Part shown: one piece after another, positions 5,031-6,940 of the stretch
Layout: every line of letters begins with the position of its first letter
Numbering within the stretch: position 1 is the stretch's first letter
DNA from: Octopus vulgaris
Lineage: Eukaryota
DNA length: 64,000 nucleotides
Direction of reading: 5' to 3'
NCBI GenBank assembly: GCA_951406725.2
Contig: OX597838.1
Location: 15,810,001 to 15,874,000, forward strand
Position numbers and translations under genes: made by a program
Notes under the pieces: generated by a model
The model's input: only the letters and a program-made list of their open reading frames with translations
The model's database searches: none
Told to the model about the DNA's origin: nothing

Positions 5031-5634
5031 TATCTATCTATCTATCTATCTATCTATCTATCTATCTATCTATCTATCTATCTATCTATCTATCTATCTA
5101 TCTATCTATCTATCTATCTATCTATCTATCTATCTATCTATCTATCTATCTATCTATCTATCTATCTATCTATCTATCTATCTATCTATCTATCTATCTA
5201 TCTATCTATCTATCTATCTATCTATCTATCTATCTATCTATCTATCTATCTATCTATCTATCTATCTATCTATCTATCTATCTATCTATCTATCTATCTA
5301 TCTATCTATCTATCTATCTATCTATCTATCTATCTATCTATCTATCTATCTATCTATCTATCTATCTATCTATCTATCTATCTATCTATCTATCTATCTA
5401 TCTATCTATCTATCTATCTATCTATCTATCTATCTATCTATCTATCTATCTATCTATCTATCTATCTATCTATCTATCTATCTATCTATCTATCTATCTA
5501 TCTATCATCTATCTATCTATCTATCTATCTATCTATCTATCTATCTATCTATCTATCTATCTATCTATCTATCTATCTATCTATCTATCTATTTATCTAT
5601 CTATCTATCTATCTATCTATCTATCTATCTATCT
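5031..5634. repeat. (TATC)n microsatellite, about 600 bp
   Basis: Nearly perfect TATC tandem repeat. Confidence 0.99.
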
Positions 5635-6432
5635 GAAACCGTTCTGCACGCACTCGTTCAGTGTCCAACAATTTCCGACCTGTGGGCTTATGTCGAACAA
5701 CTGCTGTCACGTGTGGGACGAGTCGGTTTATCAGCTGAGTCTATCGTCAATATTGTCACGCCTCCTTCCTTCAAACGGGAAGGAAGAGCTATTTTCATCA
5801 TCCTTGTGGCTATGGCGAAAGAATGTATCTGGTGGACGCGTCTGAAAGGATTGGAGACAAACACTTTCCTCTCTGGTCAATCTCTCATCAACTTCTTCAA
5901 GTACCACTTGAAAAGGAAAGTGAGAGTAGAGAGGCAAGTTTTGTCTAGCGAATGTTTTAAAAAAGATGGGTGAATGTAGCAAGAATGGCACGTATGAATG
6001 ACGAAGCCACCTTGAGCATAGTCCTATGAACCCAGAAATCGAAAACAGAGAGTTGCTTATTTGCAAAAAAAAAAAAAAAAAAAAAAAAATATAAAATGTG
6101 ACTTCATTGACCGAGGTTACCGTGGTCTTTTCCGTAGGCTTTTCTTTCCACGGGTAAACCTCACCTGTCCTCCCCTTTACACTTCATATTGACATTTCTG
6201 TGATAACGATCCCTATTGATCAATTTTTTTTTTTTTTTTTTTTTTTTTTTTCTTCCTCTCCCCCTTTTTTTAACCCCCCTTTTTTTTGTCCTCCTTCTCT
6301 CCTTTTACGATCCCTTTTGATCGAAACTCCCCCTTACTTTTTTTTTTTTTTTTTTTTTTAAACATTCAAAAGAAAAGCTCTACCTTGTAATTTGTTCTAT
6401 CTGTGTGCAGCCCTGTGTGGCTAATAAAGAAA
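5635..6432 (+). mobile_element. 5'-truncated Tx1 copy (diverged sister of 1-5030)
   Basis: Begins GAAACCGTTCTGCACGCACTCG (matches 4334 onward), encodes the ORF2 C-terminus (LINFFKYHLKRKVRVERQVLS) and ends GCCCTGTGTGGCTAATAAAGAAA. Confidence 0.95.
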
Positions 6433-6940
6433 CATATCTATTTATTTACCTATCTGTCTATCTATCTGTCTGTCTGTCTGTATGTCTATCTATCTATCTA
6501 TCTATCTATCTATCTATCTATCTATCTATCTATCTATCTATCTATCTATCTATCTATCTATCTATCTATCTATCTATCTATCTATCTATCTATCTATCTA
6601 TCTATCTATCTATCTATCTATCTATCTATCTATCTATCTATCTATCTATCTATCTATCTATCTATCTATCTATCTATCTATCTATCTATCTATCTATCTA
6701 TCTATCTATCTATCTATCTATCTATCTATCTATCTATCTATCTATCTATCTATCTATCTATCTATCTATCTATCTATCTATCTATCTATCTATCTATCTA
6801 TATCTATCTATCTATCTATCTATCTATCTATCTATCTATCTATCTATCTATCTATCTATCTATCTATCCATCTATCTATCTATCTATCTATCTATCTATC
6901 TATCTATCTATCTATCTATCTATCTATCTATCTATCTATC
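6433..6940. repeat. (TATC)n microsatellite
   Basis: Degenerate start, then a long TATC array. Confidence 0.98.

Follow-up and report, generated by a model that had tools for sequence, protein, structure and literature searches.

Two copies of an L1/Tx1-type non-LTR retrotransposon lie in the same orientation within the window, the 64,000-nt stretch of Octopus vulgaris DNA analysed here. Each copy is followed directly by a long (TATC)n array, and the first array doubles as the 3' flank of copy 1 and the 5' flank of copy 2, so that copy 2 has the same repeat in the same orientation on both flanks. A real preference of the copy 1/2 sublineage for TATC is plausible and is moderately favoured here. 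Four further insertions with the same 3' end, a decayed LINE relative and three SINE loci, lie outside TATC repeats.

The two copies and their TATC arrays

The coordinates of the copies, the arrays and the related insertions are collected in the accompanying table. In copy 1, the endonuclease, reverse transcriptase (RT) and C-terminal zinc-binding domain together span bases 1294-4729. The endonuclease carries the motifs SINVRG, SET, YAP, GDWN, YLD and TDH, the expected RT motifs are also present, and Pfam matches to ORF2 include RVT_1 (E=4.9e-32) and zf-RVT (E=8.3e-8). The two frameshifts in ORF2 lie in or beside short homopolymer runs, and may represent real decay or assembly or read errors. 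ORF1, represented in the window by its 3' part, matches zf-CCHC at E=0.0011 (19.4 bits, below the Pfam cut-off of 20.8), shows no Transposase_22 in a Pfam search of this part, and matches the ORF1 region of a distant relative, L001 (E=1.6e-5). An open frame at 787-1251 overlaps the A/G-rich end of ORF1 and may continue it across a homopolymer frameshift; tested as such a continuation against L001, it gave no significant match.

Coordinates of the element copies, TATC arrays and related insertions in the window
Feature	Position	Strand	Details
Copy 1, near-complete L1/Tx1-type non-LTR retrotransposon	1..5030	+	5' end beyond left window edge
Copy 1 ORF1, 3' part, open at window edge	2..874	+	CCHC zinc knuckle ~317-367
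APE-type endonuclease domain, copy 1 ORF2	1294..2010	+	Exo_endo_phos E=1.2e-14; L1 endonuclease match E=1.1e-9
Two frameshifts breaking copy 1 ORF2 between endonuclease and RT	2140..2215	+	Frame changes relative to P0001
Remaining copy 1 ORF2, without internal stop	2207..4729	+	RT ~2813-3559; C-terminal zinc-binding domain ~4223-4384
Copy 1 3' UTR (~300 nt)	4730..5030	+	Shares six conserved blocks with copy 2; AATAAA 5018-5023
Array 1, (TATC)n, 151.2 units, 99% matches, nearly pure	5031..5634	+	Shared flank: 3' of copy 1, 5' of copy 2
Copy 2, 5'-truncated, last ~130 ORF2 codons and 3' UTR	5635..6434	+	AATAAA 6423-6428
Array 2, (TATC)n, 132.8 units, 95% matches	6435..6963	+	3' flank of copy 2
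Copy 3, old decayed 5'-truncated LINE relative	30207..30925	+	63-64% nt identity to copies 1 and 2
SINE, 5'-truncated, same 3' end	35144..35323	-	13 bp exact target duplication, start ambiguous
SINE, same 3' end, amplified to five 184-bp units	36993..37960	+	14 bp duplication (12/14 match) starting TAT
Full-length SINE, same 3' end, inside mariner transposase relic	62764..62993	-	14-15 bp exact duplication starting TAT

The 3' UTR of copy 1 terminates in AATAAAAGAAAGT, followed directly by (TATC)151. As the preliminary description had noted, the two co-oriented copies are followed by (TATC)n without poly(A): these + strand elements terminate in AATAAA(A)GAAA and a further 2-3 nt, then pass straight into TATC, and AATAAA stands 6-7 nt upstream of the repeat in both. 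A hairpin is kept in both 3' UTRs (4790-4841 in copy 1, 6113-6164 in copy 2) with one G-C to A-U change, as judged by eye, and a conserved block lying 140-220 nt farther downstream (4963-4976; 6368-6381) is complementary to its 22-nt loop, a complementarity that could represent a possible long-range pseudoknot. The energy of the loop-block duplex was equalled by shuffles in 1/500 and 0/500 cases, for two sequences only. The hairpin's own folding z-score has no significance, and for a terminal stem-loop the z-scores of -1.3 to +0.4 across six segments give no support from folding energy.

Array 1 stays pure right up to copy 2. In array 2, the initial ~50 nt are degenerate (TATT, TGTC and TATG units) and the distal end fades to TGTC/TATG; the end previously placed at 6940 is that of the pure part, while the array proper reaches 6963. 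For repeat units of 2-6 nt, the two arrays contain the longest perfect runs that the window has (476 and 316 nt, the next being 130 nt), and they account for 265 of its 423 array TATC units. The other 12 perfect TATC/GATA runs make up 632 of the remaining 57,000 nt (1.1%), and a profile of the six related ends found no Tx1 3' end before any of these 12 runs in the window. The locus offers three junctions, yet two arrays, array 1 being counted for both copies. The window as a whole is very microsatellite-rich, with 357 tandem-repeat rows at a score of at least 30, among which the AT, AC, AGAT and ACAT classes dominate.

The homology of copy 2 begins at 5635, the repeat being pure up to that junction and the T at position 5634 assignable to either side, in agreement with the earlier observation that its 5' break joins the repeat directly; a single frameshift lies in an A run near 5960. 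Copies 1 and 2 are 82.9% identical over 392 nt. Over 107 codons they show 50 differences, 29 of them at third codon positions, with dS 0.42 and dN 0.11 (ratio 0.27, Fisher p=1.9e-5), so that the copies diverged under purifying selection. The same values uphold the earlier claim that the diverged copies are independent insertions, and support their descent from separately active lineages, not from local duplication. Despite this dS of 0.42, TATC follows both copies in phase. An age ranking of the two was tried and rejected, the derived residues among the 21 copy 1/copy 2 differences (10 and 8) showing no difference. Target duplications, sought for copies 2 and 3, are uninformative within repeats.

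Affiliation of the element and related insertions

ORF2 has the N-terminal APE endonuclease, RT and C-terminal zinc-binding domain that mark the L1 superfamily (L1/Tx1), and the endonuclease and RT score 170 bits against human L1 ORF2 versus 73 bits against R2. The RT-containing ORF scores 292 and 268 bits against two fish 'transposon TX1' proteins, more than its 170 bits against human L1 ORF2; the names of the fish proteins are automatic database labels and not curated clade calls. The Tx1 clade is recognised by a type I ORF1 with a CCHC knuckle and without Transposase_22 (PMC5203782), and copy 1 has such an ORF1, with a zf-CCHC score slightly under the curated cut-off. Among the best 120 of 315 matches, the best named protein is from Argonauta hians (65% identity). 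An RT tree of 20 rows joins the copy 1 element to Argonauta (100/99) and separates it, by a long branch, from the fish proteins; this tree is midpoint-drawn, without an L1 or Tx1L reference, and the Acanthosepion row was dropped as too short. The element is likely to be a Tx1, a label drawn from similarity rather than from a rooted tree.

In a gastropod survey, the L1 superfamily is represented by Tx1 (PMC11203168). For O. vulgaris, Table 1 of PMC13282606 lists 421 insertions belonging to 13 L1-Tx1 families that were recently active, and its supplement gives 80 L1-Tx1 families in all, with 56 Mb of L1-Tx1. The copy 1 element is probably one of these O. vulgaris-type recently active families; the portions of PMC13282606 consulted contain no target or flank analysis of the L1-Tx1 families. 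A search of the Atlas returned generic LINE names only, and a search with the longer form of the endonuclease returned one unnamed match.

A contig scan reduced 69 candidate stretches to two loci with distant relatives, L001 (43% identity) and L002 (30%). L001 (1-10508), the nearest fetched locus, has the same ORF layout as copy 1 and is likewise tandem, its head-to-tail copies being 98% identical, recurring every 6.55 kb and meeting at a poly(A) junction near 5445-5460. It differs from the window copies in that it ends in poly(A) and the next copy abuts without a microsatellite. Head-to-tail tandems of this kind can mark site-specific insertion, and no Rfam match or tRNA emerged when RNA genes were sought, either as the target or at the junction of L001. 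L001 sits in a bacterial genome bin, and is probably a contaminating eukaryotic contig. In L002, a loose (TG)n follows the stop. Estimated from L001, ~600 nt of copy 1 should remain to the left of the window.

A self-search of the window brought out four insertions with the same 3' end that the preliminary description had missed, and a profile of all six ends found no further loci in the window at E<1. Two of the six related insertions lie in TATC, and these are the two closest relatives, copies 1 and 2. The 5' break of copy 3 joins (TA)n and its 3' end is followed by (TAT)n, so that the flanking by one repeat on both sides seen for copy 2 is not found here. Downstream of copy 3, between (TAT)n and (TA)n tracts, are two related short repeats (30972-31066 and 31190-31300, ~100-130 nt), both ending in CTGTGTCC, which by eye are possibly another SINE-like family.

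The SINE tail matches the last 43 nt of copy 1 (4986-5028) at 86% (E=4e-8). The shared 3'-terminal sequence by which stringent SINE/LINE partners are recognised is present, and the SINE family and the LINE are likely to form a SINE/Tx1 partner pair. The alignment of the SINE tail extends further into the end of copy 3 than into that of copy 1, and the actual partner of the SINE may be another L1-Tx1 family. As to a tRNA-derived Pol III head, the SINE contains an A-box-like match, a strict B-box pattern is unmatched, and ARAGORN and Rfam searches of it found nothing. About 12 other copies with the same SINE head or body carry different tails. The five tandem units at 36993-37960 are 96-99% alike, have private variants in common and restart at an internal SINE TAT; judged from these sequences, the 37 kb array is a local amplification. 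The full-length SINE interrupts a mariner transposase relic (62700-63760, - strand), which matches Mos1 and SETMAR at E ~1e-7. The names OR1 and OR2 are given to octopus SINEs (PMC4758252, PMC4824008). The SINE of the window may be one of the OR1, OR2 or OK families of Ohshima and Okada 1994.

Among 300 trials, random flank pairs reached the scores of the SINE target duplications in ~3% at the 37 kb locus and in <1% at the other two. The duplications start at TAT clearly in two of the three loci, the third being ambiguous, and all lie in non-TATC DNA; a C/G-TAT core is found at 3/3, one start being ambiguous, against a background of 28%. These duplications suggest a short nick preference near TAT. 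On the 3' side, TAT occurs within 0-4 nt after the 3' end in 5/6 related insertions (background 0.195), and at 5 nt in the sixth. That TAT follows every such 3' end was considered as a signature and rejected, the 5/6 related ends being set against 6/8 SINE ends with other tails.

Target preference, repeat tail and a proposed two-layer model

By rough within-window arithmetic, the chance that both copies land in the focal arrays is 0.39 if insertion is TATC-directed and 0.0016 under a loose TAT preference without a tail, and a tail combined with a loose TAT preference gives 0.023, figures that ignore the selection of this locus for its striking look, small per-locus chances adding up genome-wide. 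With 0.39 set against 0.023, insertion directed to TATC is a better account of the locus than loose or random insertion. The targeting case rests on one locus, the 5' flank of copy 1 lying outside the window. The readings of TATC as a target and as a tail are not mutually exclusive, and both can hold.

Our preferred account, put forward tentatively, is that an octopod L1/Tx1-type sublineage prefers (TATC)n through two layers. In the first, nicking of the bottom strand by the APE endonuclease would follow a short preference for positions at or close to TAT, a motif that recurs every 4 nt in (TATC)n. In the second, a source copy lying within TATC would give rise to an RNA carrying a few UAUC units. 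Processing of 3' ends falls 10-30 nt beyond AATAAA. With this usual spacing and only 6-7 nt between AATAAA and the repeat, a few UAUC units are expected in the RNA. Base pairing of these units with the nicked strand of (GATA)n would then start reverse transcription upstream of any poly(A). The array would thereby be target and guide at once, a self-perpetuating arrangement in which long arrays would gather several copies, while SINE RNAs without UAUC would land at ordinary TAT-type sites. We infer both layers and each later step from the observed anatomy of the locus. Pairing between RNA and target at priming has been proposed for SART1 and R1Bm (PMC7265360).

A serious, if rather unlikely, alternative is that TATC is a tail made by the element, whether templated or through priming slippage, and that copy 2 entered the tail of copy 1, or copy 1 inserted beside copy 2, by chance or because the element loosely prefers AT-rich sites and the genome is saturated with microsatellites. 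Array 1 is pure at both ends, up to its junction with copy 2, whereas the start of array 2 is degenerate, which fits a younger tail laid down by copy 1. The element-linked arrays (603 and 454 nt) are 2-3 times as long as the longest other TATC tract (203 nt), and LINEs of other clades are known to terminate in short repeats (PMC3747384). Insertion of a second copy into the tail of the first, at 0.023 with a TAT preference or 0.005 if uniform, would be improbable at any one locus and yet common in a genome with 56 Mb of L1-Tx1, the figure for O. vulgaris (PMC13282606). However, none of the three SINE loci with the same 3' end has a repeat tail, so recognition of this 3' end alone adds no TATC; the within-window ratio is ~17 to 1 for TATC-directed insertion (0.39 vs 0.023); and the fading of array 2 to TGTC/TATG at its distal end resembles an ordinary genomic compound repeat. 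If the repeat is merely a tail and the adjacency chance, the locus is ordinary.

The preliminary description had proposed an APE endonuclease specific for (TATC/GATA)n. In the form now considered, the endonuclease itself would have such specificity, like those of Kibi and Koshi, and other subfamilies would have moved the SINE and copy 3; we regard this as unlikely. The evidence of the locus is identical to that for the two-layer model, TATC-directed insertion fitting it well (0.39 vs 0.023), but strict specificity is weakened by the finding that TATC is the site of 0/4 of the other insertions that share this 3' end, these being one LINE relic of 63-64% identity and three SINE loci, for which the enzyme of another subfamily is possible. 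The further extension of the SINE tail alignment into the end of copy 3 would indeed allow the SINE to belong to another subfamily, and partner SINEs can be far less choosy, with SINEU families at 13%, 23% and 90% (PMC4494074). The Tx1L endonuclease is sequence-specific in vitro (PMC1950540); since the octopus element occupies its own tree branch apart from the fish proteins, specificity by descent cannot be assumed for it. The target-reading hairpin loop has 9 residues in copy 1, as in the promiscuous human L1, versus 11 in Tx1L and L001, a weak hint against strict specificity given that the specific R1Bm has a shorter loop.

A single insertion with a template jump, in which the RT would start on copy 2 RNA, stop at 5635 and jump to a TATC-ended RNA of the copy 1 subfamily, is quite improbable. 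Template jumps have been cited for Tx1-mobilised SINEs (PMC4494074), and both copies look young, with no in-frame stops (RT region of copy 1, 107 codons of copy 2) and 10 vs 8 derived residues. The scheme nevertheless requires two subfamilies active together and a later expansion of the 600-nt spacer, and leaves the TATC ending of both RNAs unexplained. That copy 2 arose by local tandem duplication of the copy 1 3' end and repeat, or is an assembly artefact, is scarcely credible: microsatellites promote unequal exchange, local amplification did take place in the 37 kb SINE and the homopolymer frameshifts hint at read errors, but the duplication is largely refuted by the 17% divergence, mainly at third codon positions (29/50; dN/dS 0.27, p=1.9e-5), the locally amplified SINE units being by contrast 96-99% alike.

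The two-layer model has a broader form, which is speculative and distinctly unlikely. An octopod Tx1 lineage, apart from the fish microsatellite families, would home to (GATA)n by RNA-DNA pairing that involves co-transcribed repeat, and sister subfamilies would switch target through the repeat at the source copy (TATC here, TAT for copy 3), lengthen arrays upon insertion and drive a major SINE family by way of the common 3' end. If true, RNA-guided homing would make a single LINE lineage the link between the very high contents of microsatellites and of SINEs in octopus genomes.

Comparison with known repeat-targeting elements

Microsatellite-targeting Tx1 elements are already known. The precedents cited in the preliminary description are correct, namely Keno at U2, Kibi at (TC)n and Koshi at (TTC)n (PMC4494074), and crocodilian Tx1 families target (TTCC)n/(TTTC)n (PMC4494074, PMC3812793). 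A working rule is that a family target is seen in >20% of flanks (PMC4494074). Kibi, Koshi and the crocodilian families are, like copy 2, Tx1-type APE elements with the same microsatellite on both sides. As judged from descriptions of their targets, these are pure pyrimidine strands, from which TATC differs, and the present case comes from an octopod host and one locus. The TATC target motif is new but unproven, whereas a new element is probable and a SINE partner likely. Our literature search found no report of a TATC/GATA-targeting Tx1 or of an octopus SINE with a Tx1 tail, although Repbase or Dfam entries could list either. If confirmed, the list of repeat-targeting Tx1 elements would be extended to a mollusc host and to a tetranucleotide target of non-pyrimidine type.

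How Tx1 targeting works was described as 'not well understood' in a 2013 review (PMC3812793). In SART1 and R1Bm, a 3' sequence of the RNA is proposed to pair with the nicked target, as in the two-layer model (PMC7265360); these repeat- or site-specific elements belong to the R1 clade, and SART1 keeps and requires a poly(A) tail, which is absent from the window copies. If confirmed, a LINE and a SINE with a common 3' end and different targets would allow the specificity of the enzyme to be told apart from RNA-guided priming. The pairing with a SINE is also important in its own right. L1-clade-tailed SINEs are rare, with L1-clade tails on only 3 SINEs among 58 pairs in a 2013 review (PMC3747384), and 11.6% of the O. 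vulgaris genome consists of SINEs (PMC13282606). A parallel to the window pair is that of the Tx1-Mar LINEs and SINEU of crocodilians, in which the SINEs are likewise thought to use Tx1 machinery (PMC4494074). The SINEU partnership was deduced from shared targets, whereas the SINE of the window has the 43-nt 3' end in common with its LINE, and not the target repeat.
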